The translations under genes were made by a program, and so were the position numbers. A DNA stretch of 63,575 nt, counting the filler, from an uncultured virus (IMG/VR IMGVR_UViG_2049941000_000092) (lineage: Duplodnaviria; Heunggongvirae; Uroviricota; Caudoviricetes). It is 5 parts of one record of this genome, joined end to end, with 100 filler letters (N's around TTAATTAATTAA, not from the genome) between each part and the next. Parts side by side here need not be neighbours in the genome. Positions count along the whole stretch, not along the records: positions 1 to 3,622 come from IMGVR_UViG_2049941000_000092; positions 3,723 to 23,812 come from IMGVR_UViG_2049941000_000092; 3 more parts are not named here. The stretch is one strand, 5' to 3'. Of the stretch, positions 81 through 41,546 are shown piece by piece. The first letter of the stretch is position 1; every line of letters begins with the position of its first letter. The notes beneath the pieces are model-generated. The model ran no database searches. It saw only the letters and a program-made list of their open reading frames with translations, and was not told where the DNA came from.

Positions 81-92
81 AATTGTTTATTT

Positions 93-434
93 TTACCAGC
101 CCCAGTAGTCTGAGGGTTTTGTTTCTTCGACGATAGGAGTAGTTTCTTCGGGATGGCATAATTTGCAATCTGGCGAATGTTCAATGTTGATGATGTCATC
201 ATCATCATAAGACTTACCATTATTGCCTTCTTTAATGAACATCCACATGTCATGCCCTTCTTGTTGGAAATCAATCCTTCCAATCAGAAAGTCATGTCCG
301 GAACAATTTTCACTGTGGTGGTATTCAATAAGCGTCTTCTTGACGAGAACACCTTGTTCGGAATCCTTTTTGTCTGCGGAACAAAGTCCACAGACAAAAA
401 GAAATCCTAGCAGTAAAATCATAAACCGTTTCAT
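93..434 (-). CDS. hypothetical secreted/lipoprotein-like protein (113 aa)
   Basis: Signal-peptide-like N-terminus MKRFMILLLGFLFVCGLCSA; start overlaps the upstream gene's TAA. Confidence 0.75.
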   Translation of the reverse strand: MKRFMILLLGFLFVCGLCSADKKDSEQGVLVKKTLIEYHHSENCSGHDFLIGRIDFQQEGHDMWMFIKEGNNGKSYDDDDIINIEHSPDCKLCHPEETTPIVEETKPSDYWGW

Positions 435-1648
435 TACTTCTGATCAGCAATGCTTTCGGTAATGTCGAGAAGCATTTTCAGACCGACGGCGTCCATGGCA
501 GAGTTGTTACTACTACCACTGCCGCCCATCATCACCTTCGGCACCCAGCTCACACCGGATTTCGAAAGAGCTTCTGCGATTCCGACCTGTGTCTTGTATT
601 TCCACTCAGCGGCTTCCTGAGGAGTCAGGCCAGCTGCGACTTTAGCCCTATTTGCGGCTGCCTCAGCCTCACCTTCGGCAATGATACGTTTCTTGTCGAA
701 TTCGGCCTTCTCGGCAGCAAGCTTGGAAACTTCACGTTCCTGTTCTGCTTCAGTCACAGCTACGGCCTTGATTTTCTCCTGCTCCCACTTAGCTTTCTCA
801 GCGGCTGCTTTACCTTCCTCTGTAATCTGGACAGTACGTTGGATANNNNNNNNNNGGCGGTAATAACAGCCAGGTTAGCCGATTTTTGAGCGTCAATCTG
901 GTCTTGGGTAGCTTTATCGTACTTGATGTCGATAATGGAAACCAGTCCACTCGTAATACCATACATGGAGAATGGAGAAACTTCCTGACGTGCATATCCA
1001 CCGACCGAGTTGGGATCGGAAATAATCTCAGCGCGCACTCGTGTTTCTTTATCACCTGTAAGTTCATTGGTGACTTCCTCCTTGATGGAACGAGTTTTAT
1101 AAACACCGTTGTTAAGCTGGTCGGTAATATACGAAATCAAGTCAGTTCTAGTTTCAGAAACTGATTCAAGACTCGACATCAGAGGACCGCAGGCGGTAAC
1201 AACCTTGTAGAGAGTAGGACGGACTAGATTGTTGATGAGAGCTTCTTCACTACCGAAATCTCGCTGAATCTTTTGCANNNNNNNNNNGCGAATCATTCGG
1301 AAGCACCACTCGGAATGAACCAACAATCATGCCGCGGCCTTTGTCATTGAAGGTCAGTGCTGCTGCAGGATTTTTTCCTTCTGCAACATAACCGTTCTCA
1401 TCCTTCCGGAGTTCAGAGAACTCAACCTGAGAGGTCTTGTTATAGACAGAAACATTACCGAAGAGCTGCCACTGCAGACCACCGTCGGTCCACACATGAT
1501 AGGCGCCGGTAAGCGGCATCTGACAAACATAGTTTTTGGACTTGTTTGCATCTTCTGCAATCTTGGGGATAAACAGAAGAAGAAACACCGCGACAGCAGC
1601 AGTAACTATGATCCAGATACTGCTACGATTCACTTGAACCGGTTTCAT
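434..1648 (-). CDS. SPFH/band-7 (prohibitin/flotillin-like) membrane protein
   Basis: Three ORF pieces separated only by 10-N gaps: N-terminal TM, FNDKGRG..GSFRVVLP, LVRPTL..ACGPLMSS core, Ala/Glu/Lys coiled coil (AEAEQEREVSKLAAEKAE), VPKVMMGG tail. Confidence 0.8.
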
Positions 1649-1862
1649 TTTCGTTTGTTTGTTTAATAGGTTTAACAAGTTTGTCTTTCTTGCGTTTCGA
1701 CTGCTCTTGAGGTTTTGCGAGCCAATAGTAGAACGGAATGAACATTCTACCAGGCGTGAGTTTTCGATTGGTGAATTGAATCACTCCCGCACCTTGCAAG
1801 ATTACCATGATGTAATATACCAATGCCAGTAATCCTACAAGCATAATAAATAATCTCCACAT
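1623..1862 (-). CDS. small membrane protein (79 aa)
   Basis: Hydrophobic N-terminus and IPFYYW motif; overlaps the SPFH start. Confidence 0.65.
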   Translation of the reverse strand: MWRLFIMLVGLLALVYYIMVILQGAGVIQFTNRKLTPGRMFIPFYYWLAKPQEQSKRKKDKLVKPIKQTNENETGSSES

Positions 1863-2079
1863 NNNNNNNNNNNNNNNNNNNNNNNNNNNNNNNNNNNNNN
1901 NNNNNNNNNNNNNNNNNNNNNNNNNNNNNNNNNNNNNNNNNNNNNNNNNNNNNNNNNNNNNNNNNNNNNNNNNNNNNNNNNNNNNNNNNNNNNNNNNNNN
2001 NNNNNNNNNNNNNNNNNNNNNNNNNNNNNNNNNNNNNNNNNNNNNNNNNNNNNNNNNNNNNNGCTACAAGACCAATCTG

Positions 2080-2153
2080 TGGCCCCACACAGGTTTGAAC
2101 TGTGGACCGGCGGATTATGAGTCCGCTGCTCTAACCAGCTGAGCTATGGGACC
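2080..2153 (-). tRNA. tRNA with CAT anticodon (Ile2-like, or Met)
   Basis: GGTCCCA/TGGGGCC acceptor stem, TAGCTCAGCTGGTTAGAGC D arm, GCGGA-CTCATAA-TCCGC anticodon arm, CACAG-TTCAAAC-CTGTG T arm; resembles bacterial tRNA-Ile2. Confidence 0.93.
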
Positions 2154-2403
2154 GGTTATTCTTTTCGGCGAGTAATCGTCATTATTGTATCGGAATAGGT
2201 AATCACCGATAAATGGGAACTTCTGCCAGTAATAATTCTGATTCCCTTTGTAGGCCTGCTTTGGTGCCTCCCTCCAACGTTGTAATCTGCAACGTTACAT
2301 AGCCCTTTATGTAGAAAGGACGAAACTATCCAATGTTACTTGGATTAAAGGCTCAAGGAATAATTCAAAGTTTTACTTTGTGAGCCCACCGACGAAATAA
2401 GTC

Positions 2404-2500
2404 TTATAGCTTAGAACAGAATTCAAAGAGTTTCGTAAATGCTTCTTTCAATGATCCGCAGTGATCGAACTCCTGTTCGAACTTTGCGCCACCTTTTGAG
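2404..2500 (-). CDS. C-terminal fragment of a hypothetical protein
   Basis: SKGGAKFEQEFDHCGSLKEAFTKLFEFCSKL* reading out of a gap. Confidence 0.4.
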
Positions 2501-3108
2501 NNNNNNNNNNGTTTTGCATTTTACACCCATAAAACCAGTAAACCACTTTACTAGAACACTAACTGACAGAGGTCATACTCGCCAATTATGCAAAGTAATG
2601 ATATACAGTAAAATTCAGGGTGCCATCAATGACTTTGGATGTTTAGAATTTTATTACGATAGCCTTTGGCAAAGCTTGTGTTTTAAAAACAACGGCCTGC
2701 TTACACAATTACCCGGTAGTCTATCTACCGTATTTTACCTCTTTATATGTGGCAGTAACGGACGTTTAATTTTTGAAAATGGAGGGGCCTGAAAGAGTGG
2801 TCGTTGTTTTTATTATTCTACCCAAACACTGGGGAGTCGCAGTATACGGAATACGAACTTAATACATGTTGTAAAATCATAAGTCGGTAATCCGTGTNNN
2901 NNNNNNNTGTGTGGCCTTTATCGCTATAGTATTCGATGCCTTTATTAATCATGATAAATTGGTTTTAAAAGGGGCCTTTGGAATGTTAAGGCAGCCATCA
3001 ATAACCCTACTCGGAATCAGCGCAGGTTACTAAACGACAATAGGCCCCTTTGCAGAATGTAAAGAGCGTCGCTACTTTCTTTAGGTGCTAGCGTTAGACC
3101 TACAGGAA

Positions 3109-3348
3109 TTACTTCCTGTTTTTCTTCTTATTGAACCAGTTACGGTCCATCTTGGTGAGAGCGAACCAACGTTCGACAGATACCTCATCGACGTGATGTC
3201 CATCAATGAACCACCCACGATTGGTCTGAACCATCTCACGACCAGGAATTTCTTTGTCTTTGCTCTTCCAACGGAAGAATTTCTTCTCGTTTCGACGAAC
3301 AGTCTTGTTCGAGATTACGGAATAAGTTCCGTAAAGTTCGTTTGCCAT
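3109..3348 (-). CDS. hypothetical basic protein (79 aa)
   Basis: ATG start after an AT-rich leader, TAA stop, same strand as neighbours. Confidence 0.65.
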   Translation of the reverse strand: MANELYGTYSVISNKTVRRNEKKFFRWKSKDKEIPGREMVQTNRGWFIDGHHVDEVSVERWFALTKMDRNWFNKKKNRK

Positions 3349-3500
3349 AACTTAGCTGTTTAAAATAACATGTGCTTTTTAGAGTGAAAACACAATGGAA
3401 AACTTTGGGAGAAAAGCCAAGACTTACATTGCGGCAATACCANNNNNNNNNNAAACGCTTGGTCTTATAATCTCCCTACTCCGATAGGTTAGAAGGAATC

Positions 3501-3622
3501 TTACTCATTAAACATTTTAGCTATATCGGAGTATACTTGTTCCACCATCTGTCGTTTAGATGCAGACAACTTTGATTTCTTGTCCTCAATGAGGAAATGC
3601 TCATTTTCCAACTCATTAAAAG
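3501..3622 (-). CDS. C-terminal fragment of a hypothetical protein
   Basis: FNELENEHFLIEDKKSKLSASKRQMVEQVYSDIAKMFNE* at the contig edge. Confidence 0.5.
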
Positions 3623-3722
3623 NNNNNNNNNNNNNNNNNNNNNNNNNNNNNNNNNNNNNNNNNNNNTTAATTAATTAANNNNNNNNNNNNNNNNNNNNNN
3701 NNNNNNNNNNNNNNNNNNNNNN

Positions 3723-4957
3723 AGATAAAGCCCCGTTATTCACAGGGCTTTATTTTCTTCCATAGTACTTCACAGCAATACGGAATAGCAAAGGCAGTTT
3801 AATTATGTCAAAACACCAACTCGTAGAACCTCAGAAGACTGTCAGGTCTCCTGAGATTGGATAGGGCCCTTTTGGGATGCTTTTTTAATGTGGAATATAC
3901 TGCTCAATACTAGGTTGAGGGATACCAAACCACTACTAGGATTGTCCTAGCACAAAAATGAAACTGAAAATAATGTGTTCAAGGAAAACCTGGCAGTCTG
4001 TGCGTGGATAGATGTGCTATGAGTGAATCACTTACACCAAAACTCACTCTTTTACCTTCCTACCAGGTTTGAGGATTCAGCTCATGGCTTCAATAGTAGC
4101 CGTGGGAGTCCTGCTAAAAAAACGTGTCCGATAAGCGTTTTGATTGGAAACGTTCTCGGTATACTAGCATAGCACCATAAAACACACGCGTATATTTTGT
4201 GATGCATAGGATTGGTGCCCAACCACACCCTCTGGACCAGATTATTTAACTTCACTTTATACCAGACTTTCGTTGAAGCGATCCTGTAGCATGATACCAT
4301 ACAGGCTTGGATTAACTAACCAGTGTTAAAAGATTGAACGGACTAGGCGTCACCGTTGTGTAGGGTTTACTGCCATTTTCACCCCTTCAGACCGTCAAAC
4401 CTCAGCGTATAGGGACGGACAGCCTTTCTTCTGCGGGCTCTACTGGATGTTTTTGCGTGAGTCTCCCTCTCATAATTTGAGAGCCGCTCGATGTTGGGAA
4501 GTTTTAAGTCTGGTCCGTCAGTTCGTTTCCCCAAGACTATCCCTATTAAGCCAGGATGGACTGACCAGTTTACGTGTGTCATCCACGCCTGAATTTAGGC
4601 TGTTTTCGCCAAGGATCGGTGTTCCTTCACGTCGCGAGAAATGATTCGCTAGTGACAACCAGGTCATATATAATCCGTATGATACGGCTACGCATCTATC
4701 TGGTCTTTCGATGCCTTAAAAAAGGATGGGGGAATAGGCATCACCCCCGATGAGACAGCCACAAGTCTCTTTAAGTCGTGTGTTACCTATAAGGAATGAA
4801 TCCGAAGATTAAATTCCTGTCTAGGTTTAGAAGCCAGAATCCGCGAGCGTCTGGATACATATCTCAGTTATCTGGTGAGAACGTACCCGAAGGTGATTTA
4901 ATTGTGCCACCATGCATGAATCCATACACGGTGACACAATTAGGAAATCACTGCTTC
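3723..4957 (-). ncRNA. candidate large structured ncRNA or ncRNA cluster
   Basis: No credible ORF over 1.2 kb; more than 12 hairpins, most with G-U pairs only on the minus strand; two cUUCGg tetraloops. Confidence 0.5.
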
Positions 4958-4958
4958 A

Positions 4959-5627
4959 TTACGCCTGCGGAGCGGCGGGAGCCGCGGCCTCGACCGGAGC
5001 GGCATTGTCAGCCGGTGCGGCAGCGGCGAGTTCTGCGACTACGCCTCCGACCGGAGTGACATGATGCGCATCTTGCTCTCTCGTCTCGACGTGAGTGACG
5101 GCGGTGCCGTACTGGTCGACGAGCTGTTCCTTGGTGATAGGATCGAGCGTCGGAACGCGGTTGGGACGGCCACCCTGGAAGACAGGAACGCGAATCTTCA
5201 GGTCGTCGAGGACCTTGATCGCACCCATTTCGCAGAGTTTCGCCAGACGGGCTTCGTGGCCACCGGCCTTGTACCAGCTCTCGTTGACAGGACGCTGGTC
5301 GGAATCGGTGCGGCTGAGGAAGCTCAGAGAGAACCACTCGTTAGTGGTGACACCACCGCGGGTACGCGTGGCCAGAACGAAGAACGCATAGCGAGGCTTC
5401 TCGCCAGTACGCAGGTCACGCTGGACACGCTGCTTGCGACGGAGTTCCGGACGAGTCTTATACGCTTCGAGAGAAGCAAACTGCCAGATGTCACCCTGCT
5501 GAGTGAGGAATCCACCGAAAGGCTCACCTACGCCTTTCAATTCGTCGAAGTCGAAAGACTCCGAGGGGCGCTGTGCCTCCTGATACATCTCAGGAATGGC
5601 GCCGCTGATAGTAACGTTTTTTGCCAT
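4959..5627 (-). CDS. hypothetical early protein (222 aa, Ala/Pro-rich tail)
   Basis: Clean ORF with strong C/G-ending codon bias and AT-rich leader; similar to 5737..6285. Confidence 0.85.
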   Translation of the reverse strand: MAKNVTISGAIPEMYQEAQRPSESFDFDELKGVGEPFGGFLTQQGDIWQFASLEAYKTRPELRRKQRVQRDLRTGEKPRYAFFVLATRTRGGVTTNEWFSLSFLSRTDSDQRPVNESWYKAGGHEARLAKLCEMGAIKVLDDLKIRVPVFQGGRPNRVPTLDPITKEQLVDQYGTAVTHVETREQDAHHVTPVGGVVAELAAAAPADNAAPVEAAAPAAPQA

Positions 5628-5685
5628 ACTTATAAGGAGTTTGTTATTTGCTTTCGGATTTATTTTATGCCTTAGTTCCCAAACG

Positions 5686-5717
5686 AAAAAGAAAAGCCCC
5701 GTTTTTGACGGGGCTTA
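5686..5717 (-). terminator. intrinsic terminator
   Basis: Minus strand AAGCCCCGTC-AAAA-ACGGGGCTT followed by TTCTTTTT. Confidence 0.8.
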
Positions 5718-5736
5718 ACTCGAGAGTTGGTGGTGA

Positions 5737-6285
5737 CTAGGAAGCGAGGTTGAACCGGTGACACATCAGCGGACGACGTTCCGACTCAGGCTTCTCGGCA
5801 CTGTCACGGATGACCTTGCCATTCTGGTCGAAGTCGTTGGTGTGGAACGGAGCGTCAGTGACGCGGATCATGCCCTCGCCAGCAAGCTGAGAGAGTTTGG
5901 CCAGACGCTTGATGTCGGACATCTTGGACAGAAGCGGTGCTCCCAGCACATTGCCCTCCATAAGCTTGGAAATCTCATCTTTGAGGGCAGGCATGCGTCT
6001 CAGGATAGAGAGAGGCATCTCGATCGCACCCTGACGATCGGACTCGATCGCAGTGTAGAGAATCGGGAAGGTCTTCTTCCCAATCTTCTCACGACGACCC
6101 CAGATCCGGATCTTGTCGAAGGGCGGCAGCGTGATGATCTCGCCATCGAAGAACTCGAAGGGAATACCCTTCTCGCCACATTCGAGCCACTCGGAGAATT
6201 CCTCAGGTTTCTCCCCAACCTGCTTGAAGTCGAAAATGACATCCTTAGAGGCCTCTTTCACGACCTCTTCAATGTTCTTTGCCAT
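5737..6285 (-). CDS. hypothetical early protein (182 aa), probable paralog of 4959..5627
   Basis: Clean biased ORF; shared MAKN, FDF, LSxLxR and RLAKL motifs. Confidence 0.85.
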   Translation of the reverse strand: MAKNIEEVVKEASKDVIFDFKQVGEKPEEFSEWLECGEKGIPFEFFDGEIITLPPFDKIRIWGRREKIGKKTFPILYTAIESDRQGAIEMPLSILRRMPALKDEISKLMEGNVLGAPLLSKMSDIKRLAKLSQLAGEGMIRVTDAPFHTNDFDQNGKVIRDSAEKPESERRPLMCHRFNLAS

Positions 6286-6409
6286 AGAACAATTAGTTAT
6301 TAGTGTTTGACATATCCTGTTTTAAACGCACAGGTGCGTCGGTTCGTATATCGCCCCACCGCGAAGGCGCCCCATTTATAGAGGAGCTGTTGTGTACGTG
6401 CTCTTAATA

Positions 6410-6745
6410 CTAAGGAATGTAACGTTCTTGCCAGTCCTGATATCTGTCAAGATTGGCAGGATCGGCTTTAAACTCACGAACCAGTCGCTTGGCAAGATCT
6501 ACCAAGTTGTCGACCGTCATAGTTTTACCAGGCGAGGCGAAGATAGACAGCTCGTAGTCGTTGATGACTTTGCCGTCCAACCACACCTTGATGCCTGCAC
6601 GCGGAAACTCACCACCCATATCCTTGATGGTGAGTTCGTACATAGGAACGGTGCGAGCATTTCTCACTTTATCGGCGCTTGTCTCGCAGACACGCAGACT
6701 CACGAGAAGCTCGGGTGACTTGTGTTGAGTTGATGTTGGTAACAT
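6410..6745 (-). CDS. hypothetical protein (111 aa)
   Basis: Part of a tightly packed minus-strand operon. Confidence 0.75.
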   Translation of the reverse strand: MLPTSTQHKSPELLVSLRVCETSADKVRNARTVPMYELTIKDMGGEFPRAGIKVWLDGKVINDYELSIFASPGKTMTVDNLVDLAKRLVREFKADPANLDRYQDWQERYIP

Positions 6746-6748
6746 AGG

Positions 6749-6973
6749 CTAATCCCAGTAAGGATCTGGAGTTGGGCACTGTTCAAGAATCTCATACTCA
6801 ATCTGTGATTTCACTTCGTTGAGCATGGCTACGAGAGCTTCGCATTCGGCTATTGCAGCTTTGCACTGGCCGTTTGCTCCTTCGGGGTCATCGCCTTCTT
6901 GGCGATCGATGAGAGGCCGGATTGCCTGTGTGACGGTTTCCAGCTGTTCTGAGAGTGTGACAACGTGTGCCAT
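6749..6973 (-). CDS. hypothetical protein (74 aa)
   Basis: Tightly packed operon, ATG to TAG. Confidence 0.75.
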   Translation of the reverse strand: MAHVVTLSEQLETVTQAIRPLIDRQEGDDPEGANGQCKAAIAECEALVAMLNEVKSQIEYEILEQCPTPDPYWD

Positions 6974-6979
6974 AGATTG

Positions 6980-7360
6980 TTACTTTGCGACCTTCTCGAC
7001 TTTGGCCTCTTGGGCCTCATCGTCGAAGATGTTGCTCTCACCAAGCTTGATATGGCAGAGCTTACGGCAGAACTTGCGCAGTTTCCGCTGCTCTTCCATT
7101 GGATCGAAGCCCATCTTGTGAGCTTCTTCCATCGGGTCACCAGGACGAGGATTGTCCTTGGCCCACTGAGACGGCTCCCAACAGCCAGTCTCTTCATTAA
7201 GCTCCTGGAGCGTGTGACATTCTGCCTCTTTGTCCCACGCGTCGATCTTCTCGACGAAACCGTCGAAACGATCAAGATTGTCAAGAACCTGACACAGAAT
7301 GATCTGGTCGTTGATGTTGAGTTTGGCAGACACGGCGAGGATACCCCAGCCTTCCTTTGC
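6980..7360 (-). CDS. hypothetical protein, 5' end in gap
   Basis: KEGWGILAVSAKL...KVEKVAK*. Confidence 0.7.
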   Translation of the reverse strand, partial: AKEGWGILAVSAKLNINDQIILCQVLDNLDRFDGFVEKIDAWDKEAECHTLQELNEETGCWEPSQWAKDNPRPGDPMEEAHKMGFDPMEEQRKLRKFCRKLCHIKLGESNIFDDEAQEAKVEKVAK

Positions 7361-7681
7361 NNNNNNNNNNNNNNNNNNNNNNNNNNNNNNNNNNNNNNNN
7401 NNNNNNNNNNNNNNNNNNNNNNNNNNNNNNNNNNNNNNNNNNNNNNNNNNNNNNNNNNNNNNNNNNNNNNNNNNNNNNNNNNNNNNNNNNNNNNNNNNNN
7501 NNNNNNNNNNNNNNNNNNNNNNNNNNNNNNNNNNNNNNNNNNNNNNNNNNNNNNNNNNNNNNNNNNNNNNNNNNNNNNNNNNNNNNNNNNNNNNNNNNNN
7601 NNNNNNNNNNNNNNNNNNNNNNNNNNNNNNNNNNNNNNNNNNNNNNNNNNNNNNNNNNNNNNNNNNNNNNNNNNNNNNNNN

Positions 7682-7983
7682 TGAACAAATCGCATCCACG
7701 TTTTGTCATCATGCTTGTACCGTTCCGTTGTACGTTCAACAACCTTTACAGTTGATCCAACGTCAAATTTGGACAGTTGTTTGGCAAGACTGTGTTGGGA
7801 AGAAATTGTGTATATAGAACCTTTCCACACAATCTTAACTTCTGAATCATCTCGATAACCAACGGTGAGTTGTTCACCTACAACAAGACGGAACCACCAC
7901 GGAGCCCCAAATTCAACAAGTTCTTGAAAACTGATCGTTTTTCTTAATCTCTGTTCGAGATTGATGTTGATGAATCTGCACAT
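7682..7983 (-). CDS. hypothetical protein; C-terminus lies in displaced segment 9538..9580
   Basis: MCRFININLEQ...KTWMRFV; 7682-7702 is repeated at 9560-9580, which continues HKFEIVK*. Confidence 0.65.
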
Positions 7984-7999
7984 GTTTGCTTCGCTTGCG

Positions 8000-8398
8000 T
8001 TAAACGATAGTATCGTCATAGACGTGTCGAAGTTCAACAAGAAACAGATGTTTCACGATGACTTCTCCGTGTAGAACTTTGACACAAATGCCACGATAGA
8101 TGCCAAGATGGCCCTCGTCGGCATAACGCTGAATCGCCTCCTTAATAGGCAACTTGTAATAATCCTGGTTCTTTCTGAGCCACTCGATATCGGCGGGTGT
8201 GATTGCCTCGGGCTCTAAGAATACCAGTGAATCAGGCATGTCCTTCTTCTCATTGTGGTCGGGAAGAAACAGGACTTCGCCAAAACGGCACCGATCGACA
8301 TACATGTTGATGCCGTCCTGGACACTTGCGGTTATGCGATCAACAAGGCGTGAGTTGCCGTGTTTGTCGCAGAGTTGGAATACGCAGTACGTTCTCAT
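8000..8398 (-). CDS. hypothetical protein (132 aa)
   Basis: Operon packing, ATG to TAA. Confidence 0.75.
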   Translation of the reverse strand: MRTYCVFQLCDKHGNSRLVDRITASVQDGINMYVDRCRFGEVLFLPDHNEKKDMPDSLVFLEPEAITPADIEWLRKNQDYYKLPIKEAIQRYADEGHLGIYRGICVKVLHGEVIVKHLFLVELRHVYDDTIV

Positions 8399-8410
8399 GA
8401 TGTTTGCACA

Positions 8411-8749
8411 TTAAACGTCCCATTCTCTACGGGCTTCCTCGAAAGTATTGCCCATCTTCATCCATACCTCAATTTCATCACGGAGAGCAATGAACATTCG
8501 TTCCTTGTCAGAACCGAGATAATTGAGATCTCCATCGTCACCCAGCAGGCCAAAGATCTGGTCTGCGGTATAGTTCTCCAGAAGTGCAGGAACAGCGTCT
8601 TCTGGACTGATAACATCGCCTGTACGCTCGTTGATCATGTTGAGGTAATTCGTGATGATCCCGTTGATTGCAGGCATTGCGATTTCGGCGGACATGTCGC
8701 CCCATCCCAGCTTTTCGCTGATCGCAAGATGGAAAGACTCGAGAAGCAT
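8411..8749 (-). CDS. hypothetical acidic protein (112 aa)
   Basis: Operon packing, ATG to TAA. Confidence 0.75.
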   Translation of the reverse strand: MLLESFHLAISEKLGWGDMSAEIAMPAINGIITNYLNMINERTGDVISPEDAVPALLENYTADQIFGLLGDDGDLNYLGSDKERMFIALRDEIEVWMKMGNTFEEARREWDV

Positions 8750-8751
8750 TG

Positions 8752-9207
8752 CTAATCGTTATTGTTTTCTTGGGTTTTCATCCATTCGTAGAACTCATCA
8801 TCGATGATGTTGAGTATTCCGACGAGAATGTGTCGCGGCATCTTGGCCGTGGTCGAGAAGTACGACTCACCAACTTCGTTGTGAGTGCGATAGAGTGAGA
8901 ATTGAATTCTGCCAATCTGGATCGAGTTAGATGTGTAGAATCCTTCTCTCCGAAGCTTGTACTCACGGCGGAGGAAATCGTAGAACGCATCATCGTCATC
9001 CGGTAAGGACCAGTAACAATGAGATTCTTTCTTTCCATCACGAAGAGGTACGAGTTCACTCCACACCTCAAACGTGAGTGGCTTCCATGCGTCGTTTTCG
9101 CCGACGATACGGAAGGAGCGGGCCTCACCAAGACCCTTGACCATGTAAGTCTTTTTCTCCTTCGGGTTGAACATGAGTTGCATATGATGCTTGGTATTGA
9201 TTGTCAA
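8752..9207 (-). CDS. hypothetical protein (~143-151 aa, start uncertain)
   Basis: Operon packing; a downstream ATG (MQLMFN) may be the true start. Confidence 0.7.
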   Translation of the reverse strand: MTINTKHHMQLMFNPKEKKTYMVKGLGEARSFRIVGENDAWKPLTFEVWSELVPLRDGKKESHCYWSLPDDDDAFYDFLRREYKLRREGFYTSNSIQIGRIQFSLYRTHNEVGESYFSTTAKMPRHILVGILNIIDDEFYEWMKTQENNND

Positions 9208-9311
9208 ATCACAATTTTGAAAACTTAGACCCTACCCCGGTCATTGGTATATTTAATTTCATTTCCCCAATGATACTGGCAGGGGGTGCTGATTACTGAG
9301 TNNNNNNNNNN

Positions 9312-9366
9312 GCTTTCGCCTACTTGGGCATCGTTTCGCTAGAATTTCACTAGCTCATCAGCGGTC
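9312..9366 (-). ncRNA. hammerhead ribozyme-like core, 3' part lost in gap
   Basis: GACCG-CTGATGA-GCTAG(TGAAATT)CTAGC-GAAAC-GATGC: exact CUGAUGA / stem II / GAAA core. Confidence 0.6.
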
Positions 9367-9516
9367 TTTTACAAACTCACAATAAGCTATAAACATAATA
9401 CCAGTCCTTGTAAGGAGAGGATGTTTCTTAATAACTATTTTGTGTTTGACTCCGTTTATAAGAACGTGTTTTGTATCAACGAAGTCTATCTTATCTCCAA
9501 CTTTCAAATCTACCAT
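9358..9516 (-). CDS. small hypothetical protein (52 aa) ending in TGA
   Basis: MVDLKVGDKIDFVDTKHVLINGVKHKIVIKKHPLLTRTGIMFIAYCEFVKDR; the TGA lies inside the hammerhead core. Confidence 0.45.
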   Translation of the reverse strand: MVDLKVGDKIDFVDTKHVLINGVKHKIVIKKHPLLTRTGIMFIAYCEFVKDR

Positions 9517-9590
9517 ATGAATTGAGAGAATCGGGAGTTACTTTACGATTTCAAACTTGTGAACAAATCGCATCCACGTTNNNNNNNNNN

Positions 9591-10251
9591 CTGGTATATG
9601 CTAACATTAGAAGGTATATGAATAAGGACACTAAATGCTGCTGACCATCGCTGAACACAGTTGCCACGGCATGTGATTGTTCTGTCCCCACGATTAGGAC
9701 GAGTATTAAGAGATTACATAAAGAGGGTTTGATTGAGATCATTAAGAGGAAAGGCCAGTCAGACATGTATCGTTTCAAGGAATTGCTCAAGAATTTCGAA
9801 CGGTTTACTCCGGAATTCCTTGATAATAAGAAGATAACTCCCGANNNNNNNNNNNNNNNNNNNNNNNNNNNNNNNNNNNNNNNNNNNNNNAAGGCCTATT
9901 TAATAGGCCTGCACTCGCAATCTTTTAAAAGCGAGGATTACGCAGTTACCACATACTCCAATCAGGAGATTGCAAACAATCTGAACATCCCGTTAAGAAC
10001 CGTTCAGAACTATAATAAGTCTCTGCAGGAGAAGGAGATTATGACTGAGATAGCCACTTCCTTGACGGATGACGCTGGTTTCAACATTCCTGCCAAGGCG
10101 GTTGATATGCATAAGATTGGACAGGCCATTCTTTACATTAATAAAAGGGTTGATAATCATGAGGACAGAATCACCAATCTGGAACGCATGTTGGAAATGG
10201 CTCTTCGGGAGAATAAGAACTTAAAGAAGGAGAATGAATTATTGAAGGTTA
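9591..10251 (+). CDS. winged-helix/HTH (HTH_36-like) DNA-binding protein, partial, code 4
   Basis: LVYANIRRYMNKDTKCC[TGA=W]PSLNTVATACDCSVPTIRTSIKRL; second HTH YSNQEIANNLNIPLRTVQNYNKSL; C-terminal coiled coil. Confidence 0.75.
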
Positions 10252-10287
10252 NNNNNNNNNNNNNNNNNNNNNNNNNNNNNNAATTAT

Positions 10288-10341: not shown

Positions 10342-13300
10342 ATGAACTATAAAACTGACAACAAGATAATAAAACTGCAACGGGCGGGCAAGGTACCCGA
10401 AGTGGAGCCTGTCCAAACGCAGAGAGACAATACATCAGTCAAGATTTTCCCTATCGATACTGGCCAGAGACGTATAAAATTCAAGAATGATAAACAATCG
10501 GAGGAGATATTGCACGAGATACTTGCCGAAGCAGCCTCCAAATCCGATGGTCGTGCCAGTGGAAAATTCAATAAAGATTTACCGCTCCAGACGGAACATC
10601 CAGAACTGGCGGTATTATTTGCTCCCGAATTCACGACATATGGTGCGTTAGGCGGCGCTGCCAGGATTGCTGGTGGCTTGGCCGCCAGTAATGTTGCGTC
10701 CAATGCTCTGGGTAAAGCCGGAGATTGAGTAGATAGTAAGCTTGCCAGTAATTTTGTCGGTCCGACGATGCGTATCGCCGGAGGACTTGGTGGTTATGTA
10801 CTAGGCTCTGGTGCTGTAAATCCCCTGTTAAGATCTGCCGCCGGAAATGGTATTACAATGGGAATACCAAAAGAAACGTTTTCCGATTTGAGAGGGCAGT
10901 ACTTTAATAAAGTGTATAATAAGGCTCCGAAACCCGCTGACAATAAGTACATTGACCGTACAATAGATCATCTGTTCATGGAAAATCCTGAACTTAGAAA
11001 GATTGGATCGAAACAGATGTATAGACAGTATTATGATACTGTTTTTCCTGCGTCTAAGGTACAGATACCATATGCACATGGTACGAATTCCGATTTGTCG
11101 GAAGGTTTGTCCAAATCAACAAAACAAATAAACACAGGTGCTCCGGAAACACTAGGACGTAACGATATGTATTTCAATCTACAGCCAGAAACGTCGCTGC
11201 AATATGTTGACGGAATCGGAATTCCTTTTGGACATTGGAATAAACGAGTGTATTGACCGCTGAAAGAAATCCTTGGTAAACCATATACATCGGACGCCTG
11301 GAAAACTCAACCAATTACTTCTGCGACATTGCGGGAAAAGATTCCGAACAGAGCTGGAAAGTTCACAAGAGATACTGGCGGGACCAACGGCAAATGGTTA
11401 TCCGAATATAAGGCTGAATTTGGAGCTGGAGATAAATCAAATGCAGATTTCTTGAAACAGCTTGGTGTACGGGAAGGGGAAACATTCAATGACTTTGTCA
11501 ACAGGAACAGGAAGATATTCTCTGATATATACAATTCCGGAAAATATAACGGATTGTATCATGTAAAAGTAGATGCTTCTAAACCTCTTAAAATCAATGG
11601 TGGGAACACGTATTATTCCGAAAGAGGTATATGAGATTTAATGAAAAAGAAGGGAGCTGATGTACTGTTACACAATAACGCCGATAATGAATTTGGTTCG
11701 GATGTACTGGTTGTTCCCGATGTAAATCCAGAGCGAATCCAAATCCTGGGAAGTAAACCCGATGTGGAAAAGTTCAAAGATTTCGTTGGGGGACATTTTC
11801 AGTATAATGAGCCGGGCATCNNNNNNNNNNNNNNNNNNNNNNNNNNNNNNNNNNNNNNNNNNNNNNNNNNNNNNNNNNNNNNNNNNNNNNNNNNNNNNNN
11901 NNNNNNNNNNNNNNNNNNNNNNNNNNNNNNNNNNNNNNNNNNNNNNNNNNNNNNNNNNNNNNNNNNNNNNNNNNNNNNNNNNNNNNNNNNNNNNNNNNNN
12001 NNNNNNNNNNNNNNNNNNNNNNNNNNNNNNNNNNNNNNNNNNNNNNNNNNNNNNNNNNNNNNNNNNNNNNNNNNNNNNNNNNNNNNNNNNNNNNNNNNNN
12101 NNNNNNNNNNNNNNNNNNNNNNNNNNNNNNNNNNNAAATATTTCGGACTCCGAATTTAATGATTTGATTGACATAACATATAACACGTTCCCTAATAAGA
12201 CGTTCGATGCTGCAGGATTAAATAGTAAAATAATTGGATTTTATGATAAGAACGCGGCTACGGGTAAAGACTATGTTGCCATTAAGGGCTCTGAAAATCC
12301 AGAAGATGTTATTCCGCATGAACTGAGACATCTTGTAGATCAACATTTACCATTAACTGNNNNNNNNNNGAGAAAATAGTGGAATCGATTGAGAACGCAA
12401 GTGGATATGGAAAGAGATTTGTAGAATCTTTAAGAAACAAGAATTTGTTAACTCCCGAAAGAATAAAATCGTTTAGAGAAGCTATGAAATATGTTGGTGC
12501 CGCAGCTCCTATAGGACTAGGTACAGCTACGATTTCTAAGGAAAAGCGAGGCGGAATCCTAAAAGGACAGGAAGGCCTTTCCGTTAGAAAACAGAACATG
12601 ATTAAAGAAGGTGAGGATTGGCTAACTCATTGATTGATTAACAGAAAGGGTTTGCTCGANNNNNNNNNNNNNNNNNNNNNNNNNNNNNNNNNNNNNNNNN
12701 NNNNNNNNNNNATCTAAATACTCATCTCACGACGGAAACGGATCCTACGGGTTATGTATATAGTACCTATTATCCCAGTTTAAACGAGGAATTGTCCAGA
12801 CAACTATCCCAATTATACAGAACAAGCTATAAAGATACTGGATATAGTTCATTCAGATCCGGTTCTACTGGAAATGTAAGACATGTTGAATCGGAGGATC
12901 AATTGAATTGATGGTCTGGTTTATCCTATATCGCTCCAAACGGCAGAACAGACATACAACGCCCTCCTAGATATAGAGACAATCCTGAAATTAAAATATA
13001 TAAAGGTAACTGACATCCGGGCACTATCCTTCACGAACAAAGTCACGCTCTCGGTGGTGCGCCACAGGAAGTGCAGATACGTGACTTTATGAAAAATGGA
13101 GACTATCTGTCGAAGAATGCTTTCCCAACGGACCGTGCCGATTATTGGGATCATCCCACCGAAATTTATTCGAGGAGAAATGAGATATTAAAACAATTCG
13201 GAAAATCTCCGCAATATAAGTATTCTAAGGACGACCTTGATGTAATGCGAAGAACTGTTAAAGATAAAGATAGTCTGAAAGTAATGTTTTTGGACAGATA

Positions 13301-13453: not shown

Positions 13454-15691
13454 TTATCTATAGTCGGCTTTGTGCGCCCATATTCATCTCACGAAATCTT
13501 GCATTCCTTTCGGCAACTTTGAAAGATCTTCTCCGGGTTCGTACATAGTTAACGCCCAGTGTGTAGATGGGGCACTGAATCATGTATATCCCAGTCTTCT
13601 TTGTAAGTCTGTAGCCATACCATCATACCTAACCGGATCCGCACCGGTTTTTAATCCTTCAATCTGTTCTAATCTATGAACATCTTCAAGAGACGGACGT
13701 TCCGCATTCTGGTCTACAAAATCGAAATGCATTTGCTGAATTTTATCAGACACATCTGTTTCAGCCTTATGTAATTTATAGTATTCTTCATCCGGAAGCC
13801 AATCGTGTTCGGCAAGATATTTATCAGCAACACCATTCTTCGCGTTATATTCTCTAAGCAACGCTTCCAGTTCCTCCGAGAACTTCGAATCTACACCGTG
13901 CTGTGTGTAATAATCGTGTACCGCTCTATCTCCAGTAAAGACTTTTGCGCCCTTCGTACTGAAACGCAAACCATTATAGTTCGGGAAGAACGTATCCATT
14001 GGTTCCAGATTTATCGGTGCGGCAACTTTTCGAAGATTCCCATACGGGAATAAGAGGGTGGTGGATGCTGAATCTCAACTACCGCCGCTGTTTCCAGTTA
14101 CAGGTTCGTTTATGGTAAAGTGAACCGAAGCAAGACGTTTCGATACTTCTGGTGATTCGAGAGCGAAACTGTCGCCTTCAATCGGCAAGTATGAATTCGA
14201 CCTATTGATTAACGATATCGGAATGTGATGTCTTGGTGCCGGTTGATTTCTCTCACCTCTAGGTGTTCCGGCTAATTCAGCATCGCTTATCGGTCTGCTC
14301 ATTACTTTCGCCCGCGGATCTCAGTGATATGTTGTCGCCGCTTCTTGTGGTGTAGGTTCGAATTCCTTGGGAACCACATACTTCATCCAACCAAACGTTT
14401 TGGTTAGTGGATTGTATTGCATCTGTACGGTATTTAGCTTCGGATCTGCTAAGTCCACTGCACCTGTCAATCGAGTTGGATAGTCTGAATTGACGTTTCC
14501 GATTGCTGATTTGGACGGGACCACATCGTTTATTCGAGTGGTAATTTCACCTTTCGACCAGAACGGATTGTTTCTCTGCCATCATAGAAAATCTTGATCG
14601 ACACGGCGTAACGGATCCGGACGAGGCTTCATTACAGTACCATCCATATTTGGCGGGCCTATGTGTACTAAGGTAGGATCTTTTCCTTCGGTTTTGAACT
14701 TACCGAGATAGTATCTGATATTGCTGTTTCTTGGATATTCCAGATATTCGGTACCATCGACTGTTCTGTGCATAACGCCTTGTATTACAGGTCTGCCGTA
14801 ACTATAACCTTGTCCATCAGGAGCGGCATAGAACGTCTTACGTAACGACTTGTTTATAGGCTTCGATGTATCGTAGAAGTCAATATATCCTGTTTCTGGA
14901 GTACTGCTCGGAGCTATTTGTAAATCCTTGAGTATCTCTGGATCACCAAGTTGAATTCTATCACCTAATCACCGACTTGCAGAAGCTTTAGCTTCATCCA
15001 TTGTTATCGGTTCCGATAAATCGACTGACGGTTTGTTTTTGAACGCGTTCTCATAAACATCATAGTTGGAATAGTTCTCCCAGCCCTTGTTAGGAGTCTG
15101 GATTTTTGCCCTTCCTGCAGTATTATTAAGATATTGTGTCCTTAAGTTATTGAATTCCATATTGCTGGCGGGAAGATTGACTCCCTTTCCGGCAGCTCAC
15201 TGCAAACTTTTCTTTGCTCCAGAAGCACCAAGTATTACTCCGGACAACGTTCCTAGTTTCTGGAAATCCAGGAACGGATTGGATGTTCCCAATTTATTAT
15301 CTACTCATTTTCCAGCCTGATTCAGTCCTTCCGCACCTACAGCACCACCGACAAGTTCTCCAGCGGTAGTCAGATATTTCTTTGCCTTCAGGCCTTTTAG
15401 GAGTCAGTTTCCACCGGCAAGCATAAGACCTTTGTCGGCAGCTCATTTAAGTGTGTTTAATGCACGTACGGCTTCCTGTCCTTTGGCAGTGTCCTGTGCT
15501 CATCATGTCAGAGCGTTTCGTTTCTTACCATCGCCTTGGGTAATATAGCCCAAAGAGTCCGTGAAGGCTGCCTCTCTTTCTCTTTGGGCCTGTGTTTCCC
15601 ATGCACGACGTATCGAATCTTCAGGATTGGGCATTGTTGTTCACGCATTTTGCAATTTTACGACACCGCCGTCCTTAAACTTGTATTTCAT
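13454..15691 (-). CDS. 745-aa hypothetical protein with 13 in-frame TGA, code 4
   Basis: Gap-free frame with no TAA/TAG joining five track ORFs; MKYKFKDGGVVKLQNA[W]...; HFTINEPVTGNSGGS[W]D motif. Confidence 0.85.
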
Positions 15692-15692
15692 G

Positions 15693-16970
15693 TTATTTTA
15701 CAATTAAACTACCAGGATTCTCACCACCATATAATATACCAAGTCCGCTGAACACATTGGATGGTGTACCAGAAATCTTTTCTGGAACGAATGTTGCAAT
15801 TCTCGGAGCATAGTCATTGGGATAGAATTTCAGGCTTTCTCTTGTAAGGGCTTGCTGATCGACGGTATTTCCGACAGGAGCGTGCCCGCTTATGCTAAAT
15901 ATACCAGTTCCGGGTTGATATGGTCCGACAACACCTGTAGGATTAGGCATCTGCCATCTGTTGAACGATTGCTGTTCGTAGATATGTTTTTCCGGAGTAG
16001 GAACGCGCACAGGCGATTCGACTGGTGGCGGTACGAAGACCGGAGACATAACAGGACGGAATGGTACGGGATTGACCGGTACGGCAGGAATATTCTTATC
16101 CGGCGCAATCCATCTGGTCGCATTTCCAGAAGACTGGTTACCAAACGTACCTTTAGCGCTAGCGTTCGGTTGGTATCCGCCAACATGTCCTGCACGAACT
16201 GTGCCAGTTTTACCAACACCTTTTCCACCAGATGTATACACAGTACCGAAAGTTTGATTACCGGGCTGCATTTGTACCTGTCTTTGCATACCAGTGGTAC
16301 GTAAGGCATTCTGCATCATTCCGCGTCCATTCTGAGCCACATACCGTATCCAGTTCGGAAGATTTCTTAATGCAGCACCACCAGCGAGTCCTGTACCAGC
16401 GTCAATCATTATAGATTTTCCAGGGTTCTCCTGCGCATATCGTGTACCCATTACAGGTGTATAATCTAACAAATCTCCAATTCCATATTCATGTCTTCCA
16501 GATGCAGCATCATTTACATATGCCGCGCCTTTTTGCGAAGCAAGAGCGAGACCGTAGCCTATAGGATCTGTCATGGCCAAACCTGTGTTGAGGCCCGCAT
16601 TAAAGATAGTGTGTGCGGCTTTGTCAGTAGTATTTGTAATCATCTTCTGATACACAGCGGTCTTATATACCTTCGGTACCTGATCAAACTTTAACTTACC
16701 TTGTCTTACAGCCAATGCATACTTATTAATCAAATCCTGTCCAGTCTCTCCGAACTCTGTATAGTCCTGAGGTGCCTGTGCAGTAACCATTGACGGTTGC
16801 AATCTGTATGGATCTGATATGTATAACTCTGCGCCAGGATTTATCATTGGCAATTGTTCTCTGGACATAGGGTCGATTCCGTTCCAGTATAACAGGTCAT
16901 TAAGATTGAGGCCGTTATTGTTAGCAATGCTTATCCAGGAATCGCCTTTTCTTACTTTGTATTTTCCCAT
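15693..16970 (-). CDS. LysM-domain protein (425 aa)
   Basis: N-terminal YKVRKGDSWISIANNNGLNLNDLLYWN..INPGAELYI. Confidence 0.85.
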   Translation of the reverse strand: MGKYKVRKGDSWISIANNNGLNLNDLLYWNGIDPMSREQLPMINPGAELYISDPYRLQPSMVTAQAPQDYTEFGETGQDLINKYALAVRQGKLKFDQVPKVYKTAVYQKMITNTTDKAAHTIFNAGLNTGLAMTDPIGYGLALASQKGAAYVNDAASGRHEYGIGDLLDYTPVMGTRYAQENPGKSIMIDAGTGLAGGAALRNLPNWIRYVAQNGRGMMQNALRTTGMQRQVQMQPGNQTFGTVYTSGGKGVGKTGTVRAGHVGGYQPNASAKGTFGNQSSGNATRWIAPDKNIPAVPVNPVPFRPVMSPVFVPPPVESPVRVPTPEKHIYEQQSFNRWQMPNPTGVVGPYQPGTGIFSISGHAPVGNTVDQQALTRESLKFYPNDYAPRIATFVPEKISGTPSNVFSGLGILYGGENPGSLIVK

Positions 16971-22907: not shown

Positions 22908-23198
22908 TTATATACCTAATATTCTATAAGCAAATTCAAAATATCATTTTAACGGATAGTCTAAATCAACGTCGCGAGTACGATGTTGTTTATATCCCAA
23001 TCTATACAATCTATTGTGCGTTCTTCATTCCGCAATCAAACTAGTGTAACTTCTTTTGAATGCTTCACATTCTGGATGCTTGTGTTGGATTGCGTATAAA
23101 ATCTCTGCCATATCGGCACGAGATTTTATTTTGTAACTATCCTTTATCTTTATTTTATTGGAGGTTACAACGCATACCATGTCATCAAATACTTCCAT
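22908..23198 (-). CDS. conserved phage hypothetical protein (96 aa), code 4
   Basis: RSYTSLIAE[W]RTHNRLYRLG..RTRDVDL; start overlaps the endolysin stop. Confidence 0.75.
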
Positions 23199-23617
23199 TA
23201 TACAGTGAGCATTTTGACTTCTTTTCTTTGAGCACCATATCTATTCTTTAATCCGATGTGCACCCACTGCGAAGTCTTAGATTTCTCTAACAATAGTTGA
23301 TCCCATTGCTTATCTTTGATTCATTTCTGACAGAATGTCTTAAATTCCTCCATTTTTCCATTCTGAGGAACTAGGTCTGCAGCATATCCAACTAAGTGTG
23401 CAGAAGTAGTAGAGCCACCAACAGCACGATTTAGTTTAGCACACCGATAACCACTAGTTACGATGATAGGGCTTCCTCATGCAGCACGTAATCCATCTAA
23501 GAAGTCCATCAACTCATTTAGATGCGTTACAGCACTTGATGGCGGAACATTTGTAATACCTAATTTCTTTGCGGTATCGGACGCGTACATTTCTCTAAGT
23601 GTAAAATATTTTGCCAT
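23198..23617 (-). CDS. endolysin, peptidase M15 (M15_3-like), 139 aa, code 4
   Basis: KYFTLREM..LDGLRAA[W]GSPIIVTSGYRCAKLNRAVGGSTTSAHLVGYAADL..DQLLLE..WVHIG; absent from the ORF track. Confidence 0.9.
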
Positions 23618-31101: not shown

Positions 31102-31374
31102 ATGCAAGAGCAAGAGGTTTATGAATTAATAAAAGAAACAACTGGTTACGAATATATTGGTAAGTTACGAATATTGAACGATGGCAATATGTGGCAGTTA
31201 TTATTATATTTTGATAGAGAATATACTCCTACTGTATTCGCCATGGAAGGAACGGAAACCGAGTTTAAAAAGTTTCTTCGTCACGAATTCAAAACTCGTA
31301 AAATGGAAAAGACTCGTTACTATAAGATAGTTCGTGAACCTTTTGTCGATTTAACTGATTGGGACGATGAATAA
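31102..31374 (+). CDS. hypothetical protein between TerL and portal (90 aa)
   Basis: Tightly packed ORF. Confidence 0.75.
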   Translation: MQEQEVYELIKETTGYEYIGKLRILNDGNMWQLLLYFDREYTPTVFAMEGTETEFKKFLRHEFKTRKMEKTRYYKIVREPFVDLTDWDDE

Positions 31375-41403: not shown

Positions 41404-41546
41404 NNNNNNNNNNNNNNNNNNNNNNNNNNNNNNNNNNNNNNNNNNNNTTAATTAATTAANNNNNNNNNNNNNNNNNNNNNNNNNNNNNNNNNNNNNNNNN
41501 NNNATCGTGTTTATTATAATAGGAATGTATTTAAAAGAAAAGAGTA

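Follow-up and report, generated by a model that had tools for sequence, protein, structure and literature searches.

Publications on crAss-like phages and on other phages of the gut have already described how TGA is recoded to tryptophan in late genes, next to an early block that keeps the standard code. In the text available to us, Yutin et al. (2021; PMC7886860) describe crAss-like phages of the human gut in which the change from TGA to Trp is confined to the putative late-gene part of the genome, and they report in-frame TGA codons in terminase, portal and other late genes, suppressor tRNAs that often went undetected and a link to Bacteroidota. According to the 'code change' model of Borges et al. 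(bioRxiv 10.1101/2021.08.26.457843), late and lytic proteins are locked until a suppressor tRNA has been made. A suppressor was detectable in only 35% of their TGA-recoded genomes, and TGA-recoded phages from cattle were included in their collection. For the Zeta crAss-like phages (155-189 kb; PMC12386605), which include the opal-recoded Lera (179,624 bp), TGA is described as Trp codon in terminase, structural and lysis genes, about 18% of the ORFs are recoded and several opal-recoded members have no detected suppressor. The Mgcod study (bioRxiv 10.1101/2022.06.29.495998) is a tool paper that annotates genomes in blocks of two genetic codes and, in the text available to us, proposes no mechanism.

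Here, we analysed a stretch of 63,575 nucleotides (the window) of an uncultured virus (IMGVR_UViG_2049941000_000092). We consider it likely (probability of roughly 0.8) that this virus is a crAss-like phage of the cattle gut, large in genome size (about 170-180 kb), that reads TGA as Trp in virion, cargo and lysis genes and carries a divergent block that is compatible with the standard code. Like the phages of PMC7886860, it has in-frame TGA in terminase and portal and only in the late part, no suppressor tRNA detected in the window and a probable association with Bacteroidota, but those phages come from the human gut. With the named crAss-like phages its terminase shares no more than about 27% identity, and the RNA polymerase and replication blocks lie outside the present window. 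As described by Borges et al., recoded structural and lysis genes adjoin standard-code genes, whereas the 'code change module' of their Jade phages (tRNA, TrpRS, RF1) was not seen in the window and their Agate phages measure about 127 kb, compared with contigs of 170-181 kb on which the relatives of the present phage sit. The Zeta phages are alike in size class and in the use of TGA as Trp in terminase, structural and lysis genes, a likeness by description only; in Lera, TGA occurs also in the genes of RNA polymerase and helicase, both of which are absent from the present window. The combination of a standard-code block (TGA as stop) with an opal-reassigned block also resembles the genomes described with Mgcod.

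The record is a pseudo-molecule of five contigs, which are joined by stop-codon linkers and interrupted by about 60 gaps, and it represents about one third of the genome, the size of which we put at roughly 180 kb (about 170-180 kb). N letters account for 4,488 nt (7%), which leaves about 59 kb of visible sequence. The first artificial linker (3623-3722; no strand, 100 nt: 44 N, TTAATTAATTAA, 44 N) has stops in six frames and joins two contigs, so that the stretch 93-9516 spans both; identical copies were found at 23813-23912, 41404-41503 and 60247-60346. A 321-N gap (7361-7681, no strand) is filled in two other assemblies (runs X1 and X5) by 86 letters plus the piece that now lies at 9312-9559, and a 21-nt overlap (9560-9580 equals 7682-7702) can be seen directly in the window. 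The piece 9312-9580 was misplaced by the scaffolder and its true site is inside the 7361-7681 gap. As a practical warning, the record is a pseudo-molecule stitched together by linkers and full of gaps, in which at least one piece is misplaced.

All genes of the TGA-free block are on the minus strand. On the first contig (1-3622) we found E1 (93..434; 113 aa, three TGG, no TGA, stop TAA), homologues of which occur on contigs up to 93 kb, an SPFH/band-7 gene (434..1678; three frames via two 10-N gaps, six TGG, no TGA, stop TAA) and a small membrane-like ORF, E3 (1623..1862; two TGG, stop TAG). They are followed by a tRNA-Met(CAT) gene (2079..2153, minus strand), which is the only tRNA detected in the window, and between 2154 and 4958 no convincing gene was found. 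The second contig carries E4 (4959..5627; 222 aa, GC 0.60, three TGG, stop TAA), E5 (5737..6285; 182 aa, two TGG, stop TAG), E6 (6410..6745; 111 aa, two TGG, stop TAG), E7 (6749..6973; 74 aa, one TGG, stop TAG) and E8 (6980..7360; four TGG, stop TAA), for which 126 of 130 codons are visible, its own ATG lying 12 nt inside the gap (P0004, 130 aa). The 5' part of E9 (7682..8040; four TGG) continues into 9559-9538 and ends at TAA (9538-9540); E10 (8000..8398; 132 aa, one TGG, stop TAA), E11 (8411..8749; 112 aa, three TGG, stop TAA) and E12 (8752..9207; 151 aa, four TGG, stop TAG), the final gene of the block, complete the series. The block includes 4959-9207, and the SPFH contig (93-1862) is probably part of it as well. 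The label 'early' derives only from orientation, freedom from TGA and the position of the SPFH gene in crAss001. This gene, the sole one of the twelve with a known function, shares 66% nucleotide identity with gp91 of the Bacteroides phage crAss001, and phrog_11908 matches it in three collinear pieces.

The sequence-only reading had stated that the minus-strand genes from 93 to 9207 carry more than 30 Trp codons, all of them TGG, and end in TAA or TAG. Our counts agreed with this: the 12 genes end in seven TAA and five TAG, and together with a small ORF they hold 35 TGG and no in-frame TGA in 1,888 codons; out of frame, these stretches contain 123 TGA. The frames are real genes, because 22 of the 34 differences listed between them and two related phages are at third codon positions (p=2e-4). 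For comparison we used the sequence from 9591 to the window end with TGA read as sense, leaving out four minus-strand ORFs inside plus-strand blocks. This set (62 ORF pieces, 15,799 codons) contained 103 in-frame TGA versus 180 TGG, and 45 of the 62 pieces had at least one TGA. The TGA/TGG count proposed earlier, when run on the window, separated the blocks clearly (Fisher p=5e-7; 2e-7 in a beta-binomial model with gene-to-gene scatter), and chance is ruled out as its cause. The late genes differ among themselves: in two giant genes (34153-40123) there are two TGA versus 43 TGG, and nine of the 48 late pieces of at least 100 codons are free of TGA. Under table 11, ORFs of at least 100 codons already covered 95-97% of the early stretches and nothing was gained from table 4, whereas in the three large late contigs coverage rose from 49-73% (table 11) to 88-91% (table 4). 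For the short last contig (60347-63575) the values were 92% and 100%.

Part of this contrast is compositional, because the TGA share of the late pieces falls as GC3 rises (rho -0.44, p=0.014) and the early block is richer in GC. One might thus argue that a higher GC3 alone made the block prefer TGG over TGA, with no selection for code compatibility. However, with logistic adjustment for GC3, 6.6 of the 35 Trp codons in the early block would still be expected to be TGA (P(0)=6e-4), five TGA versus six TGG remain in late pieces with GC3 of at least 0.40, and one gene of the block terminates at TGA TGA. We therefore regard a purely compositional origin as very improbable.

This last gene is the small ORF of 52 codons (9355..9516, minus strand; ORF 9516..9358), the true place of which is between E9 and E8. 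It had been reported before to end in TGA, and in fact it ends in a tandem TGA TGA. In relatives, 47 of 52 residues are kept up to TGA TGA and there is no conservation beyond. In one relative a 64-aa call under table 4 reads WW and meets a stop 10 codons on, again with unconserved downstream sequence. Since a conserved gene terminates at this tandem, its sequence shows that TGA is used as stop inside the early block. The gene might even act as an inbuilt sensor of the code switch, giving a short protein early, which may be terminated twice over by RF2, and a product with Trp-Trp plus tail later, but we consider this quite unlikely. If it were true, the switch itself would alter or disable the 52-codon protein, and a stop codon would become a timed isoform switch within a standard-code block. 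Inactivation would then be favoured over a functional extension, because the tail past TGA TGA is unconserved.

The two blocks are separated by a divergent intergenic region (9208..9728, no strand). A Logan contig of 17,367 nt (run X1, which is possibly the source sample but was assembled by a different program) contains 8168-9301, then 328 letters that are absent from the window, and then 9591-13400 and beyond; the real sequence thus joins 9301 to 9591. Run X5 yields a contig that spans 4800-9301, and in two other runs both parts are present at similar depth. Six early proteins and a late LysM protein, as exact or near-identical copies, have a common longest contig of 181,669 nt, and for the small ORF, E10, E12 and the LysM protein this contig measures 39,461 nt. 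These data bear on the possibility, raised with the earlier reading, that the TGA-free genes came from another genome through an assembly or binning error. Such a chimera would fit a window of five concatenated contigs with about 60 gaps, the demonstrable misplacement of one small contig, the GC contrast between the blocks and a contig 1-3622 that is tied in through binning alone. For contig 3723-23812 the independent assemblies, the shared long contigs and the depth values argue against it, and the aligned sequences place early and late blocks on one genome. We consider a chimera hardly credible.

The first plus-strand gene (9729..10251) has a weak HTH (GerE) match and no Trp codon at all. 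It is followed by the first TGA-containing gene (10342..11820, plus strand; three TGA and three TGG in the gap-free piece 10282-11820), which shares an N-terminal domain with a 745-codon gene (13454..15691, minus strand; 13 in-frame TGA, eight TGG), and TGA falls on a Trp common to both. The LysM protein (15693..16970, minus strand; 425 aa, no TGA, five TGG) adjoins this most recoded gene. In-frame TGA was also found in an endolysin gene (Peptidase_M15_3; 23198..23617, minus strand; two), in the portal gene (31367..33013, plus strand; two) and in a gene for a BACON-domain protein (40450..41451, plus strand; three). The gene of the large terminase (28821..31100, plus strand) spans two 10-N gaps and has five TGA in 29493-31100, and the PHROG match (residues 21-519) runs across all five. 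In an alignment with 51 homologues, some of which are possibly table-4 translations, these columns hold W in 27, 50, 50, 24 and 51 sequences. Taken together, the alignments indicate that TGA is a Trp sense codon in structural and lysis genes.

When the terminase was searched by tblastn, 85 phage records were retrieved, which by the first word of the organism name comprised 37 'uncultured' (those listed carry names of the form crNNN), 30 Bacteroides phages, eight 'Bacteriophage sp.' and a few others. The listed crAss-like phages that have names showed 26-28% identity, and the unclassified MT835470.1 showed 44.6%. In the crAss-like test of terminase and portal we obtained matches to phrog_6681 and phrog_6547, and by these comparisons both proteins group with the crAss-like phages (Crassvirales). 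Crassvirales signature genes (MCP, IHF, conserved unknowns, giant RNA polymerase) were not found among the window ORFs with PHROGs and Pfam. The BACON domain and the Bacteroides-phage relatives hint at a host in Bacteroidota. This matters for the suggestion that code 4 (or 25) is the host's own code and that all of the phage conforms to it, which would agree with a phage decoder not being visible in the window. In the text available to us, Borges et al. describe phages of recoded hosts as using the recoded codon in about 90% of genes, whereas here a block of 1,888 codons has none and ends one conserved gene with TGA TGA; moreover, the TGA columns correspond to Trp and not to Gly, and the relatives infect Bacteroides. 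Because such a host leaves the TGA-free block with its TGA TGA stop unexplained, we regard this suggestion as very unlikely.

A different account is that a standard-code source recently donated the TGA-free block, or only the GC-rich core E4-E8, as a cassette, in which TGA is absent for want of time to accumulate and not from a need of early reading. E4-E8 have a GC content of 0.50-0.60 and a GC3 up to 0.71, compared with a GC of 0.27-0.45 in most of the window. Two related phages diverge by 1.1-1.7% over 4800-7360 versus about 4% over 10713-11820 and 12712-13373, and the 181,669-nt contig carries an identical E4 protein but variant forms of the neighbouring proteins. However, the early genes of ordinary GC (E1-E3, SPFH, E9-E12; GC 0.39-0.52) also have no TGA and 23 TGG, the block is a coherent, divergent and tightly packed operon, and the same partition is repeated in published recoded phages. 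Recent ancestry as the reason for the missing TGA is in our view improbable, if less so than the other alternatives. It can coexist with a timing model and is not exclusive of it.

In recoded phages, the usual agent of UGA decoding is a suppressor tRNA(UCA). In the window (about 59 kb visible) neither a tRNA(UCA) nor a tmRNA was detected by ARAGORN, also under relaxed settings, or by Rfam at gathering thresholds and E up to 5, and none of 60 translated window ORFs matched release factor or aaRS families (RF1 and TrpRS included) in Pfam or PHROGs. The earlier observation that no decoder is visible here was thus reproduced; about two thirds of the genome lie outside the window, which also lacks 328 nt of the early/late spacer. 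The idea that the early proteins are decoder candidates found no support, neither from these searches nor from E4, the only early protein folded. E4 belongs to a small family of unnamed proteins, and its structure model is confident but without a clear known fold and weakly resembles a phage ssDNA-binding protein. None of the runs that hold the stretch is on record as RNA.

The temporal switch proposed by the sequence-only reading stands as far as TGA as Trp in late genes and a TGA-free early block with a TGA TGA stop are concerned, and is unsupported for early proteins as decoder; as an interpretation, it corresponds to the published model for such phages, from which the timing of the blocks and the identity of the decoder are taken. 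After injection, the host ribosome and release factor 2 would translate only the TGA-free genes, including the 52-codon TGA TGA gene. Later, a UGA decoder made by the phage, which in relatives is a tRNA with the anticodon UCA according to the literature, would beat RF2, and the TGA-containing late genes would become translatable. Since late translation would depend on this decoder, the code difference would keep late and lytic functions under a translational lock. Which molecule decodes UGA when a suppressor tRNA goes undetected is a persisting question of the literature, and the present window opens no new one.

Since standard-code gene calling breaks up two thirds of the window, annotation of this bin requires block-wise codes. 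Public data contain more than 1,000 homologues of the terminase, and with this phage a lineage from the cattle gut joins the opal-recoded crAss-like phages known so far. The phage also provides a clean within-contig example of TGA in two roles, that of a conserved tandem stop and, a few hundred bases off, that of a tryptophan codon.

The terminase gene (28821-31100, plus strand) contains five TGA codons within its last 535 codons. When the corresponding alignment columns were inspected in 51 homologues sharing 58-84% identity with the terminase, tryptophan was found in 27, 50, 50, 24, and 51 of these sequences, while the more distant MT835470.1 carries F, Y, F, P, and L at the same positions. 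A domain of roughly 93 residues recurs close to the N-termini of two large proteins without known function, encoded at 10342-11820 and 13454-15691 (minus strand, 745 amino acids). The two copies are 33% identical (E=3e-11), and TGA falls on a tryptophan common to both. On the basis of the terminase columns and this shared tryptophan, comparative evidence indicates that TGA encodes tryptophan and not glycine.

The sequence-only reading had stated that the minus-strand genes between 93 and 9207 use TGG exclusively for tryptophan and terminate with TAA or TAG, and our counts bear this out. Reading the early minus-strand ORFs piecewise between the gaps, we obtained twelve genes (E1, 93..434; SPFH, 434..1678; E3, 1623..1862; E4-E12 within 4959..9207), which together with a small ORF (9516..9358) comprise 1,888 codons. 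They involve 35 TGG and no in-frame TGA, but 123 off-frame TGA were counted in the same stretches. The genes end in TAA (7) or TAG (5), and with table 11, ORFs of at least 100 codons account for 95-97% of the early sequence. Among the 34 listed differences to two related phages inside E4-E8 and E11, 22 are located at third codon positions (p=2e-4). This distribution argues that the early frames are real genes. E4-E8 (4959-7360) is the part closest to the two related phages (1.1-1.7% differences), and its GC content of 0.50-0.60, with GC3 values up to 0.71, stands against 0.27-0.45 in most of the window; these genes may constitute a cassette of recent spread. We also considered that the early block might shun TGA as stop codon, but the difference between one of 13 genes here and four of 18 around the SPFH gene of Bacteroides phage crAss001 was not significant (binomial, about 0.19).

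For comparison, a late set was assembled from the longest non-overlapping stop-to-stop ORFs in gap-free segments from 9591 to the end of the window, counting only TAA and TAG as stops and leaving out four minus-strand ORFs inside plus-strand blocks. These 62 pieces (15,799 codons) contain 103 TGA versus 180 TGG; at least one TGA is present in 45 of them and in 39 of the 48 pieces of at least 100 codons. Wherever an end is visible (27 cases), it is TAA (22) or TAG (5). The early and late TGA/TGG counts differ strongly (Fisher, 5e-7), and a beta-binomial model fitted to the late pieces gives a probability of 2e-7 that all twelve early genes lack TGA. Base composition might account for part of this contrast, since the TGA share of the late pieces falls with increasing GC3 (rho -0.44) and GC is higher in the early block. 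Even after logistic adjustment for GC3, 6.6 TGA would still be expected among the 35 early tryptophan codons (P(0)=6e-4). Under tables 11, 4, and 15, respectively, ORFs of at least 100 codons account for 49-73%, 88-91%, and 59-76% of the three large late contigs, and for 92%, 100%, and 97% of the short last contig (60347-63575).

The most recoded gene is that of the 745-codon protein (13454-15691), which carries 13 TGA. It is adjoined on the same strand, within 13454-16970, by the gene of a LysM protein (425 codons) with five TGG and no TGA. Two giant late genes (34153-40123), which probably encode tail-fibre or host-range proteins (the phrog_10693 match is weak), contain 43 TGG and two TGA. 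This is well under the late mean of 36% TGA, so that recoding is uneven inside the late block. The pooled positions suggested that TGA might crowd at the 5' end of genes as a kind of lock (median codon 83 versus 286, p=3e-4), but this turned out to be a length artefact. Permutation of TGA positions within the 12 genes having both codons and a visible start gave p=0.37, and the first tryptophan codon was TGA in six of these genes versus 4.6 expected.

The window contains 4,488 N in 63 runs. Four identical linkers (3623-3722, 23813-23912, 41404-41503, and 60247-60346), each consisting of 44 N, TTAATTAATTAA, and 44 N, have a six-frame-stop design and are artificial. Thus, the window is a pseudo-molecule in which five binned contigs (1-3622, 3723-23812, 23913-41403, 41504-60246, and 60347-63575) have been concatenated, and contig order and orientation across the linkers carry no meaning. 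Most other N runs are placeholders of 10 N over which the reading frame is not preserved; for instance, the SPFH gene (434-1678) is collinear with crAss001 gp91 over two such gaps but continues in a different frame after each. About 2.7 kb on both sides of the first linker (2154-3622 and 3723-4958) yielded no convincing ORF under tables 11, 4, and 15. ORFs of at least 100 codons cover 12%, 39%, and 24% of 2154-4958 under these tables, and neither an Rfam match nor notable repeats were found there. To recover the missing letters and find long relatives, DNA searches were made in collections of viruses, metagenomes, and genomes, but they returned nothing or loci that were short or weak. The same was true for related-locus searches with E4, the 745-residue protein, the terminase, E8, and E12, for blastn of 3723-9301 against phages, and for E4 and the 745-residue protein against MT835470.1.

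The region 4800-13400 was recovered nearly completely in runs of a bovine gut sample, which may be the source sample, and partially in runs of ten other study codes, and Logan contigs of four of these runs were compared with it. A contig of 17,367 nt from run X1 comprises 8168-9301, 328 letters absent from the window between 9301 and 9591, then 9591-9844 and 9891-11820, and continues to 13400 and beyond. With this contig, E10-E12 and the first TGA-containing genes are placed on a single contig by another assembler. A second X1 contig (10,370 nt) spans 4800-8197, and a contig of 6,420 nt from run X5 spans 4800-9301. In exact look-ups, the longest contig measured 181,669 nt for E4 as well as for close variants of E5, E6, E8, E11, E12, and the late LysM protein (15693..16970), and 39,461 nt for the small ORF, E10, E12, and the LysM protein. 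From these equal lengths we infer that early proteins and the LysM protein reside on the same contigs. Contig 1-3622 (E1, SPFH, E3, and a tRNA-Met) is linked to the rest by binning only; homologues of E1 occur on contigs of up to 93 kb.

These contigs also correct the position of the small ORF. In both X1 and X5, window positions 9312-9559 follow 86 letters within the interval from 7360 to 7682, and 9560-9580 is identical to 7682-7702, a 21-base end overlap. Thus, the 269-nt contig 9312-9580 was misplaced by the scaffolder and belongs in the 321-N gap at 7361-7681. With the piece moved to this gap, E9 runs from 8040 via 7682 into 9559 and terminates at a TAA (9538-9540); it is followed by the 52-codon ORF and then by E8. 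The small ORF had been noted to end in TGA, and a second TGA in fact follows directly. Its 52 residues are kept in relatives, and the database protein P0007 is identical at 47 of them. Another relative, P0008 (64 amino acids, called under table 4), reads WW at TGA TGA and stops ten codons later with a tail unlike that of the window. Since the 52 residues are kept and the tails differ, constraint stops at the tandem TGA. The small ORF and E8 have matching frames over the filled gap, but their fusion by read-through was rejected because E8 possesses a separate ATG four codons ahead of 7360 (P0004, 130 amino acids), the relative's table-4 reading ends 10 codons past TGA TGA, and the downstream sequence is not conserved. 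Judged from conservation, TGA is used as a true stop within the otherwise TGA-free block.

The earlier remark that no decoding factor is visible holds for the window. The only tRNA found is a tRNA-Met(CAT), and no ORF matched release factor or aminoacyl-tRNA synthetase families. Relaxed ARAGORN gave two candidates with a tca anticodon, at 21937-22027 across a gap and at 33595-33670 in a gene. In the latter both the anticodon stem and the T arm are poor, and neither candidate was considered credible. A GroES (Cpn10)-like gene upstream of the terminase (24883-25533) is without TGA and followed by gaps; the spacer behind it includes a 10-N gap and yielded no tRNA. The proposal that early proteins of unknown function might act as decoder found no support. 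E4 (4959-5627) belongs to a small family of about 33 unnamed representatives of some 170-200 amino acids and gave a confident AlphaFold model (pLDDT 88). It had no Pfam or PHROG match, no Foldseek match in the PDB at E up to 0.001, and one unnamed viral protein in BFVD. With VIA-align, the model was most similar to ssDNA-binding proteins of phages (Z 3.5 and 3.3), which is too weak to name the protein. E4 and E5 were considered as paralogues, which BLASTP did not support (E=0.41).

The terminase search returned 85 phage records, among them by organism name 37 'uncultured' phages and 30 Bacteroides phages. The best match was MT835470.1 (unclassified, 44.6%), and the named matches listed are crAss-like phages with 26-28% identity. 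More than 1,000 metagenomic terminase homologues were found, many of them on contigs of 145-181 kb. The SPFH gene shares 66% DNA identity with that of crAss001, which is located in a minus-strand block together with a helicase. The late parts encode terminase, portal, GroES-like, BACON, LRR, tail lysozyme, and M15 peptidase proteins. As described, Zeta crAss-like phages (PMC12386605) agree with this phage in size class and opal recoding. Yutin et al. (2021; PMC7886860) describe TAG/TGA reassignment in crAss-like phages as mostly confined to the late-gene part of the genome and suppressor tRNAs as often undetected. Borges et al. (bioRxiv 10.1101/2021.08.26.457843) propose that early genes use the host code before phage products switch it, and mention suppressors in just 35% of TGA-recoded genomes. 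The temporal switch put forward in the sequence-only reading is this published model. Taken together, the observation was correct and the phenomenon already known, with a new, poorly assembled member. What this member adds to the known picture is limited to two details of the small ORF, namely its corrected position and the conservation of its tandem opal stop.
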